From UHGV virus genome UHGV-0189183: 14,900 bases of DNA. One strand, 5' to 3'. This DNA comes from a virus. Below, piece after piece: positions 913 through 14,900 of this stretch. Under the pieces are notes generated by a model that ran no database searches, was not told the DNA's origin, and saw only the letters and a program-made list of their open reading frames with translations. How positions within the stretch are numbered: position 1 is the stretch's first letter; each line of letters starts with the position of its first letter. A program made the position numbers and the translations under genes.

Positions 913-1938
913 ATGGATAACCCGGACAAAACTCCCGTACCTGAGGTCACTGTAGCAACAGAACCGCAGCCCTCTGCAGAATGCTTCACCTTTGGCGATC
1001 CCATTCCGGTACTGGACCGGCGCGAGCTGCTTGATTATGTGGAGTGCGTACAGATTGATCGCTGGTATGAACCGCCGGTCAGTTTTGCCGGGCTGGCACG
1101 TACCTACCGCGCTGCCGTGCATCACAGTTCACCAATTGCTGTTAAGCGTGACATTCTCAGCAGCACCTTCATCCCACACCGCTTGCTCAGCCAGCAGTCT
1201 TTCGCCCGTTTCGTTCAGGATTATCTGGTGTTTGGTAATGCTTATCTGGAAAAGCGCACCAACTGGCTGGGTGGTGTCCTCTCACTGGAGCCAGCGCTGG
1301 CAAAGTATACCCGGCGCGGCGTTGACCTAGAATCCTACTGGTTTGTGAACTACGGCCTGACGATGCAGCCTTATGAGTTCACCAGAGGCAACATTTTTCA
1401 TCTGATGGAGCCGGATATTAACCAAGAGATTTACGGGCTGCCCGGTTATCTCTCCGCCATTCCGTCAACCCTGCTCAACGAGTCCGCAACGCTGTTCCGT
1501 CGGAAATATTACATCAACGGCAGCCATGTAGGCTTCATCATGTACATGACCGACGCTGCGCAGAATCAGGAGGATGTGAACAACATCCGCAAGGCAATGA
1601 AAAGTGCCAAAGGACCGGGCAATTTTCGCAATCTCTTTATGTACTCACCCAATGGCAAAAAAGATGGCATCCAGATCATCCCCCTATCCGAAGTTGCGGC
1701 GAAAGATGAGTTTCTGAACATCAAGAACGTGAGCCGTGATGACATGATGGCAGCGCACCGCGTGCCACCGCAGATGATGGGAATCATGCCGAGTAACGTT
1801 GGGGGGTTTGGAGATGTAGAAAAAGCCAGCCGTGTTTTTGTTCGCAACGAACTGATGCCGCTACAGAAGCGACTGCAGGAACTGAACGACTGGTGTGGCG
1901 AGAAAATAATTAGTTTTGAACCTTATACACTTGAGTAA
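913..1938 (+). CDS. Cargo protein resembling a P2-family (gpQ / PBSX-type) portal protein; an in-frame TTG at 811 is an alternative start
   Basis: Long ORF of normal GC content. Conserved-looking blocks (FGDPIPVLDRRELLDY, WYEPPVSF, LVFGNAYLEK, NESATLFRRKYY) match what I recall of P2-type portal proteins. Size about 341 aa from the ATG at 913. Family assignment is from memory and not verified. Confidence 0.45.
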   Translation: MDNPDKTPVPEVTVATEPQPSAECFTFGDPIPVLDRRELLDYVECVQIDRWYEPPVSFAGLARTYRAAVHHSSPIAVKRDILSSTFIPHRLLSQQSFARFVQDYLVFGNAYLEKRTNWLGGVLSLEPALAKYTRRGVDLESYWFVNYGLTMQPYEFTRGNIFHLMEPDINQEIYGLPGYLSAIPSTLLNESATLFRRKYYINGSHVGFIMYMTDAAQNQEDVNNIRKAMKSAKGPGNFRNLFMYSPNGKKDGIQIIPLSEVAAKDEFLNIKNVSRDDMMAAHRVPPQMMGIMPSNVGGFGDVEKASRVFVRNELMPLQKRLQELNDWCGEKIISFEPYTLE

Positions 1939-1966
1939 TAAAAAAGCCACTGAAGTGGCTTTTTTA
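1939..1966. terminator. Bidirectional rho-independent terminator shared by the convergent portal-like and DUF4062 genes
   Basis: A-run, stem GCCAC (1946-1950), loop TGAA, stem GTGGC (1955-1959), T-run 1960-1965. Confidence 0.6.
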
Positions 1967-1967
1967 T

Positions 1968-2933
1968 TTAATCGGGAAGGTTACGTAAATCGATATATGA
2001 GAAAAATGCGGCACCTTTCTCAGTTAACTCGTATCGAAGATATCGATTTTCCATTATTGGCGTTGTTTTGAGTAGGCCATGGACCATCATTAACGTGCAA
2101 ACATTTCTAACCAAAAAACCAGCTAAGTCAGTCGAATTTGATCTTAACCCAGAAAGAATAGTTCCTCTATACAGCAAAATGAGTCGCATTGCTGTTGTTT
2201 TAACTGGCTCTGGAGTTTCGGATAATTTTGTCGGGATCGTTAACTGTGTATTTTCAAATAGCTTATATATTTTACTGAACTCTTCCTCAGATGGTTTTTT
2301 TACTATAGCTTTACTTTCAGGGGAACGTGCAGCTCTGAGAAGTTCAACCTCAGATTTTAAAGCTTCATTTTCCTTCGTTAGTTTAGATATTTGTTCTATT
2401 AACACACTTGACTCTGATATTTCCTTTCCAGAAACCCACCCAAGGAGATTTCTCTCGACACCAATTTGAGGAAGTGTCTTATAAATTGATATTTGTATAT
2501 CTTTAATATCCCGAAAAAATTCCACCGGATACCCCTTGACCTTTTGTTTGAAAGCTTCATATTTTGTCGGGTTATCTAATTCAAGAACTTCCTTACCAAC
2601 TGTTTTAACTTTTTCATCTAGATATTCGTCATCAATGACTATCGAAAATAGAGGTTTGTTTGTACTTAAAGCATAATCATATTCGAGCTCTGTATAGCAA
2701 TAATCACTGCCGGGAGCAATCGTTCCATAACGCCCTCCCAGAATAAGGATGTAGATATCTGACTCATCTATCCAGCGCTTAATAATTTCTAACTGGCTTC
2801 TGTCTCCAGGCTTAAATAGCTCCATTCCCGCAGGTATATGCCCGGCAGTTAATATGGCACTTACCGCAGCTTGCCTTTCTTCAATGAGGTCTGTAAAAGT
2901 TGATGAAATGAAAACTTGAAATTTCCTATTCAT
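1968..2933 (-). CDS. DUF4062-type N-terminal domain protein with coiled-coil and uncharacterised C-terminal domain (hotspot cargo)
   Basis: 321-aa ORF. N-terminus MNRKFQVFISSTFTDLIEERQAAV carries the FISSTFxDLxxER signature I associate with Pfam DUF4062. Gene is markedly AT-rich relative to the element backbone. Confidence 0.65.
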   Translation of the reverse strand: MNRKFQVFISSTFTDLIEERQAAVSAILTAGHIPAGMELFKPGDRSQLEIIKRWIDESDIYILILGGRYGTIAPGSDYCYTELEYDYALSTNKPLFSIVIDDEYLDEKVKTVGKEVLELDNPTKYEAFKQKVKGYPVEFFRDIKDIQISIYKTLPQIGVERNLLGWVSGKEISESSVLIEQISKLTKENEALKSEVELLRAARSPESKAIVKKPSEEEFSKIYKLFENTQLTIPTKLSETPEPVKTTAMRLILLYRGTILSGLRSNSTDLAGFLVRNVCTLMMVHGLLKTTPIMENRYLRYELTEKGAAFFSYIDLRNLPD

Positions 2934-3331
2934 TTTTTATCCATATAGAGTTATTGTCATCTAACATACCTACAAAATGCTATAGGTAAATTTAAGTTGG
3001 TATTATTAGTCTTTTACTAGTATCTAATGCTGAAAAAGTTGATGAAAGAAAGACATTAGACGCAGATACCAACATCAGAGCATAATCATATGATATAGGT
3101 TAAAGCGTGTTCAAGACCGATTAACGTAAGTTCCCTAGATCTCCCCTCAGCGCGAGCAGCCCCGCCCGCCTGCCCGCTTCGCTTAACAGAATGGTTTTCA
3201 TGCACCCCGTAAATCGCCTCAGGAGCCGCCACACAAGGGCTTTCACGTCAAAAATGATGCATGAGACTCATGCGTTTTCATGCGCCATAGACATGCACTC
3301 ATGCGCTCTCAGGCCAGCCAGGAAAAAGGCG

Positions 3332-3360
3332 TAAAAAATCCCGGTGCCGGGCCGGGATTA
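3332..3360 (-). terminator. Rho-independent terminator ending the Sid/Psu-Ogr operon
   Basis: On the minus strand: stem AATCCCGG, loop, stem CCGGGATT, followed directly by a T-run; about 20 nt past the Ogr-like stop. Confidence 0.55.
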
Positions 3361-3379
3361 GGTAGGCGTTTTTTGCTAA

Positions 3380-3652
3380 TCAGACAGGGATTTGCTGGCG
3401 GCTTGATAACTTTGATGCAGAGCCATAGCGATTGAGCGTTTGCTGTTGTTTTTCCGGCATTTGTGCTTTGTCTGATTCCTGTTCATTGCGCCGGGGCTTC
3501 ATAATTATCTTATCCACACTTTCCAGAGCGGTAAATGTGCAGGAACATTCAAGATTCTGGCACTGATACCATGAGCGTTTAACCGACGGTGCTTCATAGG
3601 CGGTGGTTCTGGCGTGTGCAACGGTGCCGCATTCAGGACATTTCAGCGCCAT
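3380..3652 (-). CDS. Ogr/Delta-family zinc-finger late-gene transcriptional activator
   Basis: 90 aa. C-x2-C-x22-C-x4-C arrangement (CPECGTVAHART...YQCQNLEC) closely matches the P2 Ogr / P4 Delta pattern. Confidence 0.85.
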   Translation of the reverse strand: MALKCPECGTVAHARTTAYEAPSVKRSWYQCQNLECSCTFTALESVDKIIMKPRRNEQESDKAQMPEKQQQTLNRYGSASKLSSRQQIPV

Positions 3653-4413
3653 CAGATACCCTCCATATCACGGTTACGTTTCTGCAGCTCTTCACGTTCC
3701 TGACGGATCTTCATTTTGTGAAGGGCCGCCGGTGACGGGATTTTGCTTAAATCGACACGAGCCGCATAATCCGGCGCAACGCCCGCCAGTTTAAACACAG
3801 GGTCCAGTTCCGGCATCGCAGTGTTAGCAAGAGCCGGTTTGGTGATATGTTTGTGAATAAAGTCTTTCAGCAGTGTGTCCGGGTCATTAACTGAATTCAC
3901 CACCCCCACAACGGCACTGGCTTCCCGCCCCATTGTGGTTTTGAGCAGGCTCAGTGTCTGGATTAACGCCTTACCATGCGCCTGCATGAAGTCTTCCCAG
4001 ATTTGCTTTGCGCGAATTTCCACAAGGGTGTTATGTGCGCTGATATACTGCCCGGCTAATTTCCCGGCTTCCTGCGGTAATAAGGCATTTTCGCTTTCCT
4101 GAGCTGCCAGCAGTTCATCAAAATCCTCAAGCGTTTCTCGTCCCAGCGCAATTTCCGTGCGCAGTTTTTTCATTTCCTTTGAGACTACGCCCTGACTTTC
4201 ACGAAACAGCGTGCGCCACTCCTCATTCAGCGCGTTCGTCGTGGCTTCCATTTCAGCCCGGCGCTGGCGGATTGTCGCAATATTATCCGCTGCCGCTTTC
4301 TGCCGACGACGTGCTTCAAGCCATGCGCTTCTGGCCGTGTTCAGGGTTTCCATTGCCTGCTGCGTTACAGCCGGAAAAGTGGAAAGGTTGTTATTCTCTG
4401 CGGTGTTGTTCAT
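3652..4413 (-). CDS. Sid/Psu-family protein (P4 capsid-size determination / polarity suppression family)
   Basis: 253 aa, strong AGGAG ribosome-binding site before the ATG at 4413. Immediately upstream of the Ogr/Delta-like gene, as sid is in P4. Helical, charge-rich sequence resembling my recollection of P4 Psu/Sid. Which paralogue it is cannot be resolved. Confidence 0.6.
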   Translation of the reverse strand: MNNTAENNNLSTFPAVTQQAMETLNTARSAWLEARRRQKAAADNIATIRQRRAEMEATTNALNEEWRTLFRESQGVVSKEMKKLRTEIALGRETLEDFDELLAAQESENALLPQEAGKLAGQYISAHNTLVEIRAKQIWEDFMQAHGKALIQTLSLLKTTMGREASAVVGVVNSVNDPDTLLKDFIHKHITKPALANTAMPELDPVFKLAGVAPDYAARVDLSKIPSPAALHKMKIRQEREELQKRNRDMEGI

Positions 4414-4813: not shown

Positions 4814-7486
4814 TTAACCCGGCACCTCGCTGTTGAAGACATAGAGTCTGCGGGGATTCATCTCTGGCGGGCGAATGGTTGTCTGCAGCTTGCCATCGGT
4901 GGAGGGCAGCAGGTATCCACGATCCGCGCACAGACGCGCCACCTTGCGCGGGTCAAATCCCCGGCAGATTTCTTTCCAGCCGGACGGCATGACGTAGAAC
5001 GTGGTGACGGCCTCCGTGCCCTGCGCGGTACTGCCTTTCTCCACCCTGCGCCAGCCCACCATATTGCCGGGGCGGTTACGCTCGTCGTGCCAGTCAGCAA
5101 AGCGGCTGTACTGATTCGCGGTAAAGAAGCTGCGTACCTGCTCCAGTGCGGCAATATCTTCCTGATTGGCGGTGTGCCCGCGATCTTTCAGCCATGCGTT
5201 CAGGCAGACGCGGGTTGCCCGCAGCGCTTCACCCTCAGGCCAGCCGGTAATACCCAGCCGGGTTGCCAGCTCGCCCGCCATCGCCACCAGTGCAAAGCGG
5301 TTCACAGCCCGGCCTACCTGATTACCCGCATCTTTCGGGGTCAGGGCGGCTGTATATTCCTTCATCAGTGACTTTGCCTGTGCCGTCAGCCCGTTAAGGT
5401 CAGCGGTCAGGGCTTTCAGCCACTCCCTGAACGGCGAACCGTAGTAGCTGGACGTGGCCCACTCCAGATGTTCCGCCAGAGCCTTGCCGCTGTCGAAGCC
5501 GTGCAGCTCCTCAAATACGCCAAATTTCCCGGAATCGCTGGGGATCTGGATCATCCTGACTTCCATCCCGGCAAAGGTACGCTCACCGGCTTTTGCCGCA
5601 TGTTCGGTCAGTGACAGCTCGCCGGTTGAAAAGAACAGCAGCCGCCACTGCTTACGGGTGCGCAGCTCACCGTCCGTACCGGCACGGCCCTTGCCCTGAC
5701 CGTTTGCCAGCATGTAGGCGATATTACCCGCCTCGCGTCCGTCCACCTCCCGGATCTCATCAAGCATCATGGCGGCATCGTTGCGGCGGCTGGCGCATCC
5801 CTCCAGCGCGTTGCCGGTTGCCCGCCACGTCTGCCAGTAATCAGGCCCGCCACAAACGGAGGTTGCCGCTTTCATGGTGGTGGTCTTACCGTCAGTCGAT
5901 TCCCCCTTGAGGTGGTAGCCGCCGCCGTCCATCCCAACCAGCCGTAACAGGGGTGCAGCAAAGGCCAGACTGACGGCAAACGCCACGCGGGAGTTACCGG
6001 TGCAGTAACGGGAAACGTGCTCCCGCCATTCCTCCGTTGTACCTGACACACGGAAATCGCGCCCCTGCACGGAAGTGGTCTGGAGAATGACACCCTCTGC
6101 ACCTTCACCGCTGACCTCATCCTGCAGGACGTAAACCTGACCATGCCAGCCAGTGCGGCTGACGCAGGTCACGCGGCGTTCCGGTTTACACAGCGAGATA
6201 TATTCCATCAGGCGGGCGCGGGCCTCACCGGTGGTGCTGATATAGGACAGCCCGTTAACCAGCAGTACCCGGCGTAGTTCCTCACCGCTACCACTGAGCA
6301 TTTCCATCGGCATCGCCCAGCGGCGGCGCTCTCCCCATGTATCTTCCCACTCCAGCAGTCGCCCGAAATTACCGCCATCAGCATCGCAGGTGATTGCCGT
6401 CACGCGCAACGGGTTGCATATTTTGACGTTCTGGATCTCCGTCTCACCGTTGCGCTGTACCTGTTTTTCATACCAGAGATATTCCTGGGTAAGACGGAAC
6501 CCGTGCGGCAACTGCGTGCGGCCTTCTCCGCACAGTACAAGACCGTTACGAAAGGCTTCACGGGCACGTGTAATACCGTGCTCACGGTGGAAGTCATTCC
6601 AGTCAGCTTTAATTTCTCCCGGTGGCAGCGTCACCCAGCCACCGACTGATTTTGCCGCCCGTTCAGCAAAGGATCTGCCGGGATTCTCGCCCCCGTCCTG
6701 AAAATCGTTATCACCGGCGATGATAATTTTTACCTCAGGCCAGCGTGCCCGCAGCGCCTGTGCGACGTTGGGCAGGTTGCCCGCCGATATGGCCGCCACT
6801 ACGCATCCGGCGGTGAGCTGGCTTACCGTCAACGCCGTGGCGTAACCTTCGGTAATCACCACCTGTACCGGCGGTTCAGACGGTAACGGGCTGAGCGCCA
6901 CAAACGCGCCTTTCATCGTGCTGCCGGGCAGTATGCTTTTTTCACCCGTCGGGGCGATAAGCTGTGCACCGGTCACGGCTCCGGCGTTTGTCGTGAGCGG
7001 TAACAGCAGGGAACCGGCAGGGAAATCCTTACCACTGATATGCTGCACGCTCCCGGTCAGGGAGGCCGGGTATCCGGCGAACCCTTTTCCGGTCAGATAG
7101 GGGCTTTCTCCCGTGTGACTCTCTTTCATCAGGGCCGCCACGGTAAGGCTCATATCGCGTTTAGGGGCTTTTTGCCTGGCGGGCTTAACGGGCAGTTCCT
7201 GCACATCCGGCACATTAAGCACCTGCGCCACCTCCTGCGCTGCCTTTCTGATGCCGTAACCGGTTATGAGCTTAACCAGATCCAGACCATCACCATTGCC
7301 GCACTGGCTGCAAATCCACGTCCCGCGCCCGTCGAGGTCATCGAGGCGGAAGCGATCCTTGCCCCCACATTTCGGGCAGGGACCGTGCCTGCCGTTTTCA
7401 GGTACATCAATACGCAGCATCTGCAGAATGACGGGCCATTTTCCCCGCGCTGCGGCTGAAATCTGCGTAACCGTCTGTGTTGTCAT
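4814..7486 (-). CDS. P4 alpha-type primase/helicase replication protein
   Basis: 890-aa ORF. N-terminal zinc-binding motif CPKCGG...CSQCG. Large size and position in the replication operon next to the iterons match P4-family alpha proteins. Confidence 0.85.
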   Translation of the reverse strand: MTTQTVTQISAAARGKWPVILQMLRIDVPENGRHGPCPKCGGKDRFRLDDLDGRGTWICSQCGNGDGLDLVKLITGYGIRKAAQEVAQVLNVPDVQELPVKPARQKAPKRDMSLTVAALMKESHTGESPYLTGKGFAGYPASLTGSVQHISGKDFPAGSLLLPLTTNAGAVTGAQLIAPTGEKSILPGSTMKGAFVALSPLPSEPPVQVVITEGYATALTVSQLTAGCVVAAISAGNLPNVAQALRARWPEVKIIIAGDNDFQDGGENPGRSFAERAAKSVGGWVTLPPGEIKADWNDFHREHGITRAREAFRNGLVLCGEGRTQLPHGFRLTQEYLWYEKQVQRNGETEIQNVKICNPLRVTAITCDADGGNFGRLLEWEDTWGERRRWAMPMEMLSGSGEELRRVLLVNGLSYISTTGEARARLMEYISLCKPERRVTCVSRTGWHGQVYVLQDEVSGEGAEGVILQTTSVQGRDFRVSGTTEEWREHVSRYCTGNSRVAFAVSLAFAAPLLRLVGMDGGGYHLKGESTDGKTTTMKAATSVCGGPDYWQTWRATGNALEGCASRRNDAAMMLDEIREVDGREAGNIAYMLANGQGKGRAGTDGELRTRKQWRLLFFSTGELSLTEHAAKAGERTFAGMEVRMIQIPSDSGKFGVFEELHGFDSGKALAEHLEWATSSYYGSPFREWLKALTADLNGLTAQAKSLMKEYTAALTPKDAGNQVGRAVNRFALVAMAGELATRLGITGWPEGEALRATRVCLNAWLKDRGHTANQEDIAALEQVRSFFTANQYSRFADWHDERNRPGNMVGWRRVEKGSTAQGTEAVTTFYVMPSGWKEICRGFDPRKVARLCADRGYLLPSTDGKLQTTIRPPEMNPRRLYVFNSEVPG

Positions 7487-9386: not shown

Positions 9387-10439
9387 TTAAAATCTTCCTG
9401 CTTTAGATGAGCTAAGACATTCTTTTATCTTATCTTTTCCAAGTTCAACCTTTGTTTTTGGATTGTTTCTTTCTGCCACGATTTTATCTGCCCACGCGTC
9501 AATAGTCAGTTTTCCTCGTTTTCCATTGCAAGATGCTGGGTCATTTAGTAACCAATAAATAGCTGCTTTGTACACTGCCTCTCTTTTTGTTGCTGATGCT
9601 TCAACATTACCATGCACTCTTCGGATGCTTTCGATGCTGGATACACCACCATTCACATAGCTGGGTAGCTCTTTGCCAACACCGTTATCTAATTTTTCTA
9701 TTTGGTATCTTGTTAAATAGATATCATCCAGTGTTATATTTCCAATAATATTTTTATTAGATGGAGATACTAATCCCTCTATTGATGATAAGCCTTCGAA
9801 AGGGGACATTGCTAATATTACCCACTCATCACTGCCAAATGCAGCATTAGTGAATGGCATATTAGCTTCTTTAAAAGAAATATCATGTGCTAATAGCCTT
9901 GCTTTACCATATACCTTTAGTTCTTTGTATAATGAAGATGTTGGGCTGATGACACATATAGACCACAATCCAGAAAGTAAGATTAATGGGCTTTTTATAT
10001 TTGGTTTGTTTTCTAAATGGTATATTTGTTTTGGAGGTGAAAATGGCTTATCTTCTGTATAATCAATATCGAATTTTGCTTTTGGTATGAAATGGCTTAA
10101 TGCAGATTTATTACTATAGTTTAATACTCTGGGTGGGTACATGTTTTCCCAATCTTTAAAATCTCCACCTTTACGCATCATCATTAGCGCAGCTTCGAAA
10201 CCATTTAATTCTAAGCAAAATTCGATAATTCCAATTTGAGCAAAATGGATAAGGTCATCAATTTGGCAATTAAGTAGTTCAGCAGCTCGTTTTAGGGAGC
10301 AAAATTCCATTACAGGAATACTATTCCTTTCCCAAACATTTAATCGTGTATTATCGCTCATCACGTCACCTGTATGCACATATGGTAAAATGGGGCGAAT
10401 AGCAGACTTTACTACTATTAGCCATTTTCTTATTTTCAA
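9387..10439 (-). CDS. Hypothetical AT-rich cargo protein between integrase and alpA (alternative start at 10361 with AGGTGA ribosome-binding site)
   Basis: 350-aa ORF whose first codon overlaps the integrase stop. Conspicuously AT-rich. No family recognised by eye. Confidence 0.6.
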   Translation of the reverse strand: MKIRKWLIVVKSAIRPILPYVHTGDVMSDNTRLNVWERNSIPVMEFCSLKRAAELLNCQIDDLIHFAQIGIIEFCLELNGFEAALMMMRKGGDFKDWENMYPPRVLNYSNKSALSHFIPKAKFDIDYTEDKPFSPPKQIYHLENKPNIKSPLILLSGLWSICVISPTSSLYKELKVYGKARLLAHDISFKEANMPFTNAAFGSDEWVILAMSPFEGLSSIEGLVSPSNKNIIGNITLDDIYLTRYQIEKLDNGVGKELPSYVNGGVSSIESIRRVHGNVEASATKREAVYKAAIYWLLNDPASCNGKRGKLTIDAWADKIVAERNNPKTKVELGKDKIKECLSSSKAGRF

Positions 10440-11707
10440 ACAACGCGTAGTTTTTTCATTTTATAGGGGGCAATATATCTATCAGTGTTAGCTTCAATAT
10501 AATTAGACCACCATTGCATCATCCGACGACGTTCATGCATATGCTGAGCTAAGTGTACATAAGCGGCTCGCACTTCATTTCGTTCTTGATGGCTCATTTG
10601 CCGTTCTACTGCATCCCTCGACCATAAGCCTGATTCTGTCAGGGCTGAGCACGCCATTGCCCTAAATCCATGAAGGCAAATGTCCACCTGCGTGTCGTAC
10701 CCCATAATTCTTAATGACTTATTAACTGTGTTCTCACTCATTGGTTTGTAAGGGTTACTATCTCCGGGGAAAATAAGTTCATACTCACCACTTATTTTTT
10801 TAATAGCTTCGAGAACATCAATAGCTTCATTAGATAATGGAACATAATGAATACTGCCCATTTTTGCCCCACGCTCTGAATATTTTACCCCATCAATTCT
10901 TTTTCTTTGAGCAGGAATAGTCCACATTGCATTTTCAAAATTAATTTCCTCCCATCTTGCGTGTCTCAGTTCACTGGAGCGAACAAAAGTATGAAGAGAA
11001 AATAATACTGCCAGCTTAGTTAACGGCCTCCCTGTATAGCTATCAATTTTTGATATTAATTCGGGTAATCGTTCTAACGGAAGTGCAGGGCGATGCTTTA
11101 TTTTGGGGCTGGAAATTGCTCCTCTTAGATCATGGGTAGGATTGTATTCAACAATTCCACGCTGAATAGCGTACCGGAAAACGCTTGCAAGAGTAGTTTT
11201 CACTCTTCCTGTTGTTGCTCCAATTCCCTGATCACTCATCCTCACCAATAATGGCAACAGGTCACTTGTTTTTAATGAGTCGATGGGTTTATTTCCGATA
11301 TATGGGAAAATATGATTTTCCATTTCTCTTAAAATTTTAGTGCGGGTAATCTCTTTCCATGAGGGATGGCCTATAGAGCCTTTATGCCACTCTAAAGCGA
11401 TTGTCTGGAATGTAGCAGAGGCGGGTTCTGTTGGCGCTGCTTTTTTAGATACTCTGGGATCAACACCGTCGGCTAAAAGTTGCCTTGCTTCATCTCTACG
11501 CTTACGGGCAAGTGCCAGCGAAACGTCTGGGAAAACGCCCAAAGCCAGCGTAGCTTGTTTGCCGTTAAATCTGTAGTTCATTCGCCATGCCTTGGTCCCG
11601 TTCTTTTTAACTAAAAGATACAGGCTTCCCCCATCCGTCAGTTTGTAGTCTGTTTCTTTGGGTTTAGCGTTTTCAACTTTCTTGGGTGATAGCTCATTTA
11701 GTGCCAT
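10436..11707 (-). CDS. int: P4-type tyrosine integrase (site-specific recombinase)
   Basis: 423 aa. N-terminal arm-binding-type region (YKLTDGGSLYLLVKKNGTKAWRMNYRFNGK) and C-terminal catalytic region (HGFRAMACS...VERQMSH...RAAYVH with the tyrosine). Immediately adjacent to the tRNA gene. Confidence 0.95.
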   Translation of the reverse strand: MALNELSPKKVENAKPKETDYKLTDGGSLYLLVKKNGTKAWRMNYRFNGKQATLALGVFPDVSLALARKRRDEARQLLADGVDPRVSKKAAPTEPASATFQTIALEWHKGSIGHPSWKEITRTKILREMENHIFPYIGNKPIDSLKTSDLLPLLVRMSDQGIGATTGRVKTTLASVFRYAIQRGIVEYNPTHDLRGAISSPKIKHRPALPLERLPELISKIDSYTGRPLTKLAVLFSLHTFVRSSELRHARWEEINFENAMWTIPAQRKRIDGVKYSERGAKMGSIHYVPLSNEAIDVLEAIKKISGEYELIFPGDSNPYKPMSENTVNKSLRIMGYDTQVDICLHGFRAMACSALTESGLWSRDAVERQMSHQERNEVRAAYVHLAQHMHERRRMMQWWSNYIEANTDRYIAPYKMKKLRVV

Positions 11708-11891: not shown

Positions 11892-11966
11892 TATTGTCCC
11901 CTGCAGGAATCGAACCTGCAATTAGCCCTTAGGAGGGGCTCGTTATATCCATTTAACTAAGAGGAC
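11892..11966 (-). tRNA. argW: tRNA-Arg, anticodon CCU (argW-type); the three nucleotides after the discriminator read ATA, not CCA
   Basis: The reverse complement, read from 11966 (5' end) to 11892 (3' end), gives GTCCTCTTAGTTAAATGGATATAACGAGCCCCTCCTAAGGGCTAATTGCAGGTTCGATTCCTGCAGGGGAC-A-ATA. It folds as a cloverleaf with a CCU anticodon and a TTCGATT T-loop. Confidence 0.85.
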
Positions 11967-11977
11967 AATGCGGCATG

Positions 11978-14204: not shown

Positions 14205-14900
14205 TTAAATATCATCAAAATTAACACCTGGCGCAGATGGTTGATTAATTTCATTTTGATATTCAGCCTGGCGATTTTGAAGCCTTTCTTCAATTTTACC
14301 TTCGAGATCCTTAAAATGCTTATATATTTTTTGAGAATGGCCAACGTTAATTTTGTTACCGACTAAAGTAGAAACTATTTCTTTTAGATGGTCGCATTTA
14401 TATTTTGCATCGTCCACTTGAAAATCATATCTTATTGCTCGACCATAACGTTTAAAAACGTCGTTTGGTTCTCTCAGTCTTTCCCCGTTGAGCTCGTTTA
14501 CAACCTGATGATCGGAACCAGTTGCAAATGATTCTGCCATGATAGCTTTACTGCTTTCAAACCACGCTGAAGCACTCCTGGCGTTTTCACTACAATATTG
14601 GGTGAGACTATCACCATTAATACGAATTCCTCTTTGAATGTGGTAGTCGTCCTGATCGTAGTAACCGAGAGATAAGTAATCATTTCCGTTTTTATTTTTA
14701 ATTACAATAGCGAGAGAGTCGCCTTTTTTATCTTTACCGTACCAGGTAAATAAGTCCGTTGGTTCGCTTTTCCCGCTCTCATCAAATTCCGTTACCGTAT
14801 GTCTGAGTTTGTGTGATATCTTATCGAAGATAAAACCAGGATCTCCATCATATATTTCTTTTAATGCGCTGAAGATCATTTCCTTGTTATTGATATCATG
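14205..14900 (-). CDS. 3' portion of an AT-rich hypothetical gene continuing beyond the window end (position consistent with yfdF of E. coli)
   Basis: Frame stays open upstream of the ATG at 14879 to the last base of the window. AT-rich coding sequence convergent with mlaA. Confidence 0.5.
   Translation of the reverse strand, partial: HDINNKEMIFSALKEIYDGDPGFIFDKISHKLRHTVTEFDESGKSEPTDLFTWYGKDKKGDSLAIVIKNKNGNDYLSLGYYDQDDYHIQRGIRINGDSLTQYCSENARSASAWFESSKAIMAESFATGSDHQVVNELNGERLREPNDVFKRYGRAIRYDFQVDDAKYKCDHLKEIVSTLVGNKINVGHSQKIYKHFKDLEGKIEERLQNRQAEYQNEINQPSAPGVNFDDI

Follow-up and report, generated by a model that had tools for sequence, protein, structure and literature searches.

A DUF4062-family gene as candidate single-gene anti-phage cargo of a P4-like satellite, beside a P2-type portal gene

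The gene and its transcription unit

The DNA analysed here, a stretch of 14,900 nucleotides listed as virus genome UHGV-0189183 and called the window in what follows, comes from the chromosome of Escherichia coli (99.9% identity with strain EC1515, among others), into which a P4-like satellite is integrated at argW. This analysis concerns a minus-strand gene of that satellite, whose product belongs to the DUF4062 family of TIR-like NADases. The product is probably a stand-alone abortive-infection defence protein, carried by the satellite as cos-proximal cargo. The gene, the parts of its product and the signals around it are as follows.

1968-2933, minus strand: DUF4062 (TIR-like NADase family) gene, single-gene defence candidate, ATG start, 321 amino acids
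2439-2933, minus strand: TIR-like catalytic core, residues ~1-165 (AlphaFold2 model, Foldseek)
2331-2408, minus strand: helical stalk or coiled coil, residues 176-201, a single helix in the AlphaFold2 model that aligns with the KpSwz stalk
1983-2288, minus strand: AUX domain with a winged helix-turn-helix (residues 216-317), which presumably senses the trigger
1927-3139, no strand: variable cassette, comprising the DUF4062 gene and its upstream region
1939-1966, both strands: bidirectional intrinsic terminator, a perfect 14-bp hairpin that separates the DUF4062 gene from the portal gene convergent with it
3332-3360, minus strand: terminator closing the psu-like/ogr-delta operon, hairpin with U6, -11.8 kcal/mol
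3085-3114, minus strand: weak candidate sigma-70 promoter of the DUF4062 gene from a consensus scan, TTGAAC-18-TATGAT

The open reading frame (ORF) is present precisely as given in the earlier note, a first reading of the letters of this DNA, and it is far more AT-rich than the backbone, as was also said there. Its G+C content (GC) is 0.372, and that of the whole variable cassette 0.359, against 51-60% for the backbone (0.515 for ogr-psu and 0.604 for the alpha primase gene); the portal gene stands at 0.519. The gene lies alone between two terminators, and no other same-strand ORF of at least 50 amino acids is found in the cassette.

Both hairpins described before at these positions exist and carry U runs. 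Downstream of the gene, the segment 1935-1970 folds with -16.8 and -16.3 kcal/mol on the two strands (z -8.1 and -6.8, reached by 0 of 200 shuffles). A and U runs flank the 14-bp hairpin on either strand, and it is therefore read as a bidirectional terminator common to both convergent genes. Its position is that of P2 tQ, which adjoins Q in the P2 annotation. The upstream terminator has the sequence AAUCCCGG-N7-CCGGGAUU followed by U6; its hairpin (3325-3365, minus strand, -11.8 kcal/mol with UUUUUU) has a z of -1.4 when taken alone and is no better than shuffles. Likewise, the sigma-70 consensus scan that yielded the candidate promoter gives no more sites than are seen in shuffled sequence.

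Characterised DUF4062 proteins

Osinski et al. 2026 (bioRxiv 10.64898/2026.05.01.722283) described DUF4062 as a TIR-like NADase that makes ADP-ribose and nicotinamide, and showed that single DUF4062 proteins guard E. coli against BASEL phages by abortive infection with NAD+ depletion. In the Swarozyc protein of Klebsiella pneumoniae (KpSwz), defence needs Glu97 and the C-terminal AUX domain, E97 being required for NADase activity as well. KpSwz forms auto-inhibited dimers that involve an AB interface, a swapped strand and helical stalks. The protein is activated by the portal of phage Bas14, around which thirteen winged-helix AUX domains wrap. The winged helix-turn-helix of KpSwz binds protein, not DNA, and its AUX recognises the portal through a hairpin anchor (W238/Y239) and alpha-loop-beta modules. 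The five proteins tested by Osinski et al. have similar AUX domains, according to the authors.

A second kind, Evangelion, was reported by Ibarra-Chavez et al. 2026 (10.64898/2026.06.25.731849). One of its proteins is Eva01 from the Staphylococcus aureus plasmid pMW2, whose defence needs F11, E87, W162 and the AUX domain. Its activation goes together with loss of NAD+, and phage escape mutations fall in recombination and replication genes. The same authors found the DUF4062 superfamily on plasmids, prophages and phage satellites.

The DUF4062 core and the stalk

The earlier note had recognised a DUF4062 N-terminus, and Pfam agrees: PF13271 (DUF4062) matches residues 6-88 over its full profile (positions 1-82 of 82) with E=2.7e-28 and 98.4 bits against a cut-off of 24.7. 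Kinship with KpSwz extends further. BLASTP gives 36% identity over residues 1-199, the KpSwz chains of PDB entries 10wc, 11cq and 11cv match residues 2-200 with E=3.7e-26, and a 34-sequence family profile finds KpSwz with E=1.6e-40. On these alignments the gene is a member of the DUF4062 family. In PHROGs, the protein matches only families of unknown function.

The AlphaFold2 model, with a predicted local distance difference test score (pLDDT) of 81, starts with an alpha/beta core at residues 1-165 and one long helix at 176-201; a disordered linker then leads to a compact domain at the C-terminus. The best Foldseek matches of this model are the TIR domains of RUN1, RPS4, SNC1, SARM1 and BtpA, with probability 1.00. 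The TIR-like fold proposed earlier is thus borne out by plant TIR NADases, SARM1 and BtpA, although it spans about residues 1-165 and is not confined to the 82-residue Pfam core. The coiled coil predicted to follow the N-terminal domain corresponds to the single long helix at 176-201.

Homology points to E84 (in YTELEY, codon 2682-2684) as the catalytic glutamate and not to one of the glutamates of the IEER motif, which had been suggested as residues to mutate. E84 aligns with the alanine of the deposited KpSwz E97A chain and W166 with W176, the KpSwz numbering being offset by 14, as checked against the retrieved KpSwz sequence. The equivalent glutamates are E97 in KpSwz, E87 in Eva01 and E1008 in TEP1. 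Among 34 homologues, F8, E82, E84 and W166 are invariant and Y85 is nearly so.

The C-terminal AUX domain

The C-terminal domain could not be assigned in the earlier note. Residues 205-321 are a separately folded domain fused to the core, now assigned as an AUX domain of the winged helix-turn-helix, sensor type. Profile-profile comparison with hhalign aligns 29 columns between this AUX family and that of KpSwz (probability 42%, E 2.6e-4), and these columns are the recognition helix, the wing and the final helix. The phmmer and hmmsearch alignments with KpSwz end at or before residue 256. The families of this protein and of KpSwz each give thousands of matches, and their top-120 lists do not overlap; as judged from these searches, the two proteins head separate large families.

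The AUX domain alone, searched against 1.84 billion representatives, gives 22 matches. Ten of these were scanned with Pfam, and none of the ten has a different effector domain, while three carry a partial DUF4062; on this ten-match scan there is therefore no sign that the AUX domain is fused to other effectors. Taken by its sequence, the protein is of the DUF4062 single-gene defence kind, although not a strict Swarozyc orthologue. The architecture, not recognised in the earlier note as that of a named defence system, now belongs to a named kind (Swarozyc and Evangelion, both from 2026 preprints) and is therefore not novel as a class.

The variable slot

The gene had been placed in a variable hotspot downstream of the Psu-like and Ogr/Delta genes, at the island end far from the integrase gene, and on both counts the location is confirmed. 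A sister satellite in strain NCTC11023 has a near-identical backbone, 99.4% identical from position 3140 onward and 90.8% across the portal gene. Its homology with the window ends at 1926 and restarts at 3140, and the slot between holds a different small gene, of 120 amino acids. This break therefore defines the variable cassette as 1927-3139. Canonical P4-like elements of other strains have, for example, a SIR2 plus ATPase pair beside ogr/delta, and earlier work has described a cos-proximal hotspot in P4-like satellites (Rousset et al. 2022, PMC9122126; Moura de Sousa et al. 2026, PMC13586616).

Among 5426 complete E. coli genomes, only 9 contain the DUF4062 cassette, with argW and leuX as the two attachment sites; it is also found in a Leclercia satellite, where the DUF4062 protein is 93% identical. 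Identical copies of the protein are encoded on 542 contigs from several genera, variants of 93-95% identity stay full length at three different loci, and thousands of proteins at 42-48% identity keep the full-length architecture. More distant family members are found at the integrase ends of prophages and, in Vibrio, in an integron-like array of cassettes that includes ParE and AbiV genes.

Two side observations concern other genes of this kind and of this slot. Beyond the gene of the window, no fewer than two further types of DUF4062 gene exist in E. coli genomes: LF82/NRG857C has one of the KpSwz type, and in seven genomes there is a third, for which the match is limited to the first 250 nt. 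The hotspot of the Leclercia satellite (locus L020) holds further cargo, a 537-amino-acid ORF at 5058-6671 of that locus, between ogr/delta and the DUF4062 gene, which matches no Pfam family.

The portal gene and the origin of the cassette

Two features bound the cassette on its outer sides.

913-1938, plus strand: intact P2-type portal gene, gpQ homologue, 341 amino acids, convergent with the DUF4062 gene
3148-3181, minus strand: cos-like site (diverged cosN), recognised in a local alignment with the junction sequences at P2 and P4 cos

The portal gene is the last gene of the island and lies 29 bp from the DUF4062 gene. It matches TIGR01540 (portal_PBSX, E=1e-100) and phrog_68, and its product is 61% identical to P2 gpQ over 336 amino acids and reaches about 90% identity with portal proteins from other P2-like phages. 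The earlier note missed both this intact flank and the fact that the cassette is common to P2-like prophages. The closest relatives of the DUF4062 gene outside satellites (79%, 65% and 62% identity) are all in P2-like prophages, where, as in the window, they converge with the portal gene GpQ, at a distance of 28-42 bp from its stop codon; the replication gene GpA lies on their other side. With one such prophage, the window shares unbroken nucleotide homology over 973-2944 (77% identity), a segment that begins within gpQ, includes the terminator and reaches 11 nt beyond the DUF4062 start codon on its upstream side. A tblastn search of deposited phage genomes found no close homologue, the P2-like carriers being prophages or metagenomic contigs.

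In other sister satellites the portal gene is not intact: IS3 truncates it in strain KFu022, and of the Leclercia copy a remnant of about 50 codons is left. It thus behaves like a piece of the P2 hotspot that hitch-hiked with the cassette, and not like a gene that serves the satellite. A role of the portal as functional partner, antidote or decoy of the NADase was considered and set aside, since the sister satellites have lost it. No functional pairing needs to be assumed because the architecture of the P2 hotspot explains the adjacency and the AUX domain differs in type from that of KpSwz.

On the other side of the cassette, the minus strand can be aligned with the junction sequence GGTGCATnAAAACC...GAAGCGGGCnGGCG(A)GGCGGGG at cos of P2 and P4, and several TGCATGA repeats at about 3190-3300, which are possible terminase-binding sites, precede the cos-like site. 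The exact P2 cos 19-mer was not found with up to three mismatches, and for that reason the cos function is given as putative; a blastn search of the phage collection with the upstream region gave no match.

The homology described above points to a transfer of the cassette from P2 to P4 elements. According to a survey of thousands of elements (Moura de Sousa et al. 2026, PMC13586616), the exchange of defence genes between P2 and P4 almost never takes place, and this satellite lineage looks like an exception. A fuller proposal, tentative and somewhat short of an even chance, is that a P2-like GpA-GpQ cassette (DUF4062 gene, terminator and gpQ) moved into the cos-proximal hotspot of a P4-like element, that the resulting lineage, recognisable by a satellite-portal junction in 13 of the 5426 genomes, shares cos and gpQ flanks with P2 hotspots, and that its AUX lineage may define a new trigger specificity. 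Such common flanks would make cargo swaps with helpers by homologous recombination possible. Just upstream of the gene, at about 3030-3062 on the minus strand, lies the relic of another DUF4062 5' end, which reads NVFLSSTFSALD and corresponds at 21 of 25 nt to codons 7-14 of the intact gene (0 of 300 shuffles are as good). A previous cassette probably left this trace behind on recombination, which would fit repeated recombination at this site.

The rest of the satellite

The remaining features of the island are the following.

372-388, no strand: attachment (att) repeat at the integrase-distal island end, the 16-bp repeat of the argW 3' end, with its partner at 11899-11914
3380-4413, minus strand: satellite helper-subversion module, consisting of a Psu/Sid-like gene (3652-4413) and an Ogr/Delta gene (3380-3652)
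9387-10439, minus strand: AT-rich (35% GC) ORF of 350 amino acids, between the integrase gene and the AlpA-like gene
10436-11707: tyrosine integrase, first island gene on the tRNA side

The island is bounded by the 3' end of a tRNA-Arg(CCT) gene at 11894-11967. After the 350-amino-acid ORF, the gene order runs through an AlpA-type regulator, an Icd-like gene, DUF5375, a Zn-ribbon/Toprim/DUF927 primase, the Psu-family gene and Ogr/Delta; helix-turn-helix/AlpA-like and Icd-like genes are annotated in an identical E. coli locus. Pfam supports the helper-subversion module with E=1.1e-7 for Psu and E=1.1e-16 for Ogr_Delta. The core set of a P4-like element is present (integrase, AlpA, alpha primase, Psu/Sid, Delta and the cos-like site). 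There is only one Psu/Sid-family gene in the island, and the integrase gene stands on the alpA side and not beside the hotspot.

The 350-amino-acid ORF has no Pfam, NCBIfam or PADLOC match and a weak PHROG match. At this position, the leuX satellite of strain KFu022 has a different gene, and the position may be a second cargo slot. Outside the island, beyond an mlaA-like lipoprotein gene, another AT-rich ORF (31-40% GC, 224 amino acids) occupies 14205-14879 on the minus strand, for which PADLOC and NCBIfam searches gave no match.

Proposed mechanism and alternative explanations

By analogy with the characterised relatives, the protein would be an NADase that protects by abortive infection once a trigger of phage origin is sensed. 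In the uninfected cell, it would form an auto-inhibited dimer or oligomer, held together by the TIR-like cores (residues 1-165), the conserved GW(V) strand around W166 and the stalk (176-201). Upon infection, a macromolecule made by the phage would bind to the C-terminal winged-helix AUX domain (216-317), the stalks would re-align and the TIR-like domains would assemble into the active form. The ensuing loss of NAD+ would halt the infected cell before the phage completes its cycle. The suggestion of a single-gene anti-phage system thus stands as regards family, fold, stand-alone layout and variable slot, while defence itself has been shown by experiment in the relatives.

Several points weigh against this explanation. 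Protection or NAD+ depletion has been demonstrated for KpSwz, the E. coli homologue UPI0002A39D72, Eva01 and Eva03 only, and the Eva02 lineage gave no protection (10.64898/2026.06.25.731849); family membership is therefore no guarantee of the phenotype. UPI0002A39D72 may be the window protein, but it is more probably of the KpSwz type found in E. coli LF82. Outside the 29 aligned columns, hhalign detects no kinship between the AUX domain and that of KpSwz, and the W238/Y239 hairpin anchor (the GWY hairpin) of KpSwz is not present in the protein. With so divergent an AUX domain, the activation step above is therefore an extrapolation from KpSwz. The winged helix-turn-helix could also bind DNA instead of a phage protein. 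Finally, PADLOC-DB v2 and NCBIfam searches with the protein gave no match, a blank that is expected and of little weight because both predate or omit a family described in 2026.

The protein has the same three-part architecture as KpSwz (TIR-like core, stalk and a winged helix-turn-helix AUX domain of about 120 residues), and the wing and recognition-helix segment of its AUX is weakly similar to that of KpSwz. Both facts would suit a strict Swarozyc orthologue, whose AUX domain senses assembled phage portal rings and whose complex with them is the active NADase. This is nonetheless unlikely. The N-terminal half of the AUX domain, which in KpSwz contains the hairpin anchor and the alpha-loop-beta modules, has no sequence counterpart here, and Eva01, a DUF4062 protein with another AUX, responds to replication proteins. 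Moreover, the carriers are P2-like prophages and satellites, which need portal rings to propagate, so that a general portal sensor would be self-destructive unless it ignored gpQ. The sensor of a defence protein carried by such elements would have to stay silent on the P2-type portal that they assemble, and its trigger is probably recognised otherwise than KpSwz recognises the Bas14 portal.

Possible DNA binding by the winged helix-turn-helix would also agree with an accessory factor unrelated to defence, whose TIR/nucleoside-deoxyribosyltransferase-like core acts on nucleotides for the benefit of the element, in regulation or nucleotide metabolism. Such a role is quite improbable: all three bacterial DUF4062 lineages with an experimental phenotype are anti-phage, the gene sits in fast-turnover slots that hold defence cargo, the sister elements that lack it show that the satellite can do without it, and the KpSwz domain of this type binds protein. 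Barely plausible, in turn, is a decaying passenger, an inactive remnant brought along with the gpQ flank by recombination. The ongoing loss of gpQ in sister elements and the DUF4062 relic just upstream speak for decay at the locus. The ORF itself, by contrast, is intact and retains all invariant residues of the family, and its wide occurrence as an identical protein and as full-length variants is not that of a remnant; besides, pseudogenised defences are rare in P2/P4 hotspots according to the 2026 survey (PMC13586616). An abortive-infection defence protein of the DUF4062 family remains the favoured explanation.

If this explanation is correct, the gene adds a large AUX sensor lineage to the DUF4062 NADase defence family, with thousands of full-length relatives in Gammaproteobacteria and beyond. 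The trigger of this lineage would show how one effector-stalk scaffold is re-targeted by the swap of a small winged-helix sensor. It also raises a question of self-tolerance, as a portal switches on the relative KpSwz, yet the carriers of this family must assemble portals; the AUX lineage would have to tolerate the helper's own portal, of which a version is encoded 29 bp away. The gpQ gene, for its part, would be a fossil flank that marks the origin of the cassette, and offers a testable case of immunity-gene transfer from helper to satellite.

Comparison with known systems

The closest known system is Swarozyc, represented by KpSwz. Both are single proteins of about 320 amino acids with a DUF4062/TIR-like core, a stalk and a winged helix-turn-helix AUX domain, both are carried by integrative mobile elements, and the catalytic glutamate (E84, E97) and the junction tryptophan (W166, W176) correspond. 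The difference lies in the AUX domain, whose sequence in the window protein is unrelated over most of its length.

Evangelion (Eva01 and Eva02-04) shares the combination of a core with a divergent AUX domain, the residues F8 (F11 in Eva01), E84-Y85 (E87-Y88) and W166 (W162), and the role of single-gene cargo of a mobile element. However, the AUX domain of Eva01 is short and tied to Silviavirus replication and recombination proteins, while the window protein has a stalk and a winged helix-turn-helix AUX. The staphylococcal plasmid homologues align with the core only (about residues 4-172).

With the canonical TIR NADases, such as Thoeris ThsB/ThsA, SARM1 and plant TNL proteins, the protein appears from its model to share the flavodoxin-like TIR fold, the catalytic glutamate and, presumably, an output that consumes NAD+. 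The similarity is distant, with Foldseek E values of 1e-4 to 1e-2, template-modelling (TM) scores to target of 0.55-0.61 and an identity of only 13-17%. DUF4062 proteins differ from these enzymes in a distinct AB dimer interface and in their product, which is ADP-ribose and not a signalling nucleotide (10.64898/2026.05.01.722283), and the window gene has no partner effector gene.

As cargo, the gene resembles that of the P2 (GpA-GpQ) and P4 (psu/delta-int) hotspots: it occupies a variable cos-proximal slot with psu/delta on one flank, is AT-rich and is swapped between otherwise near-identical elements. It departs from the hotspots described by Rousset et al. 2022 (PMC9122126) and Moura de Sousa et al. 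2026 (PMC13586616) in its far flank, which is the gpQ portal gene and not the P4 integrase; the integrase stands at the other end of the island, and the cassette is one common to P2-like prophages.

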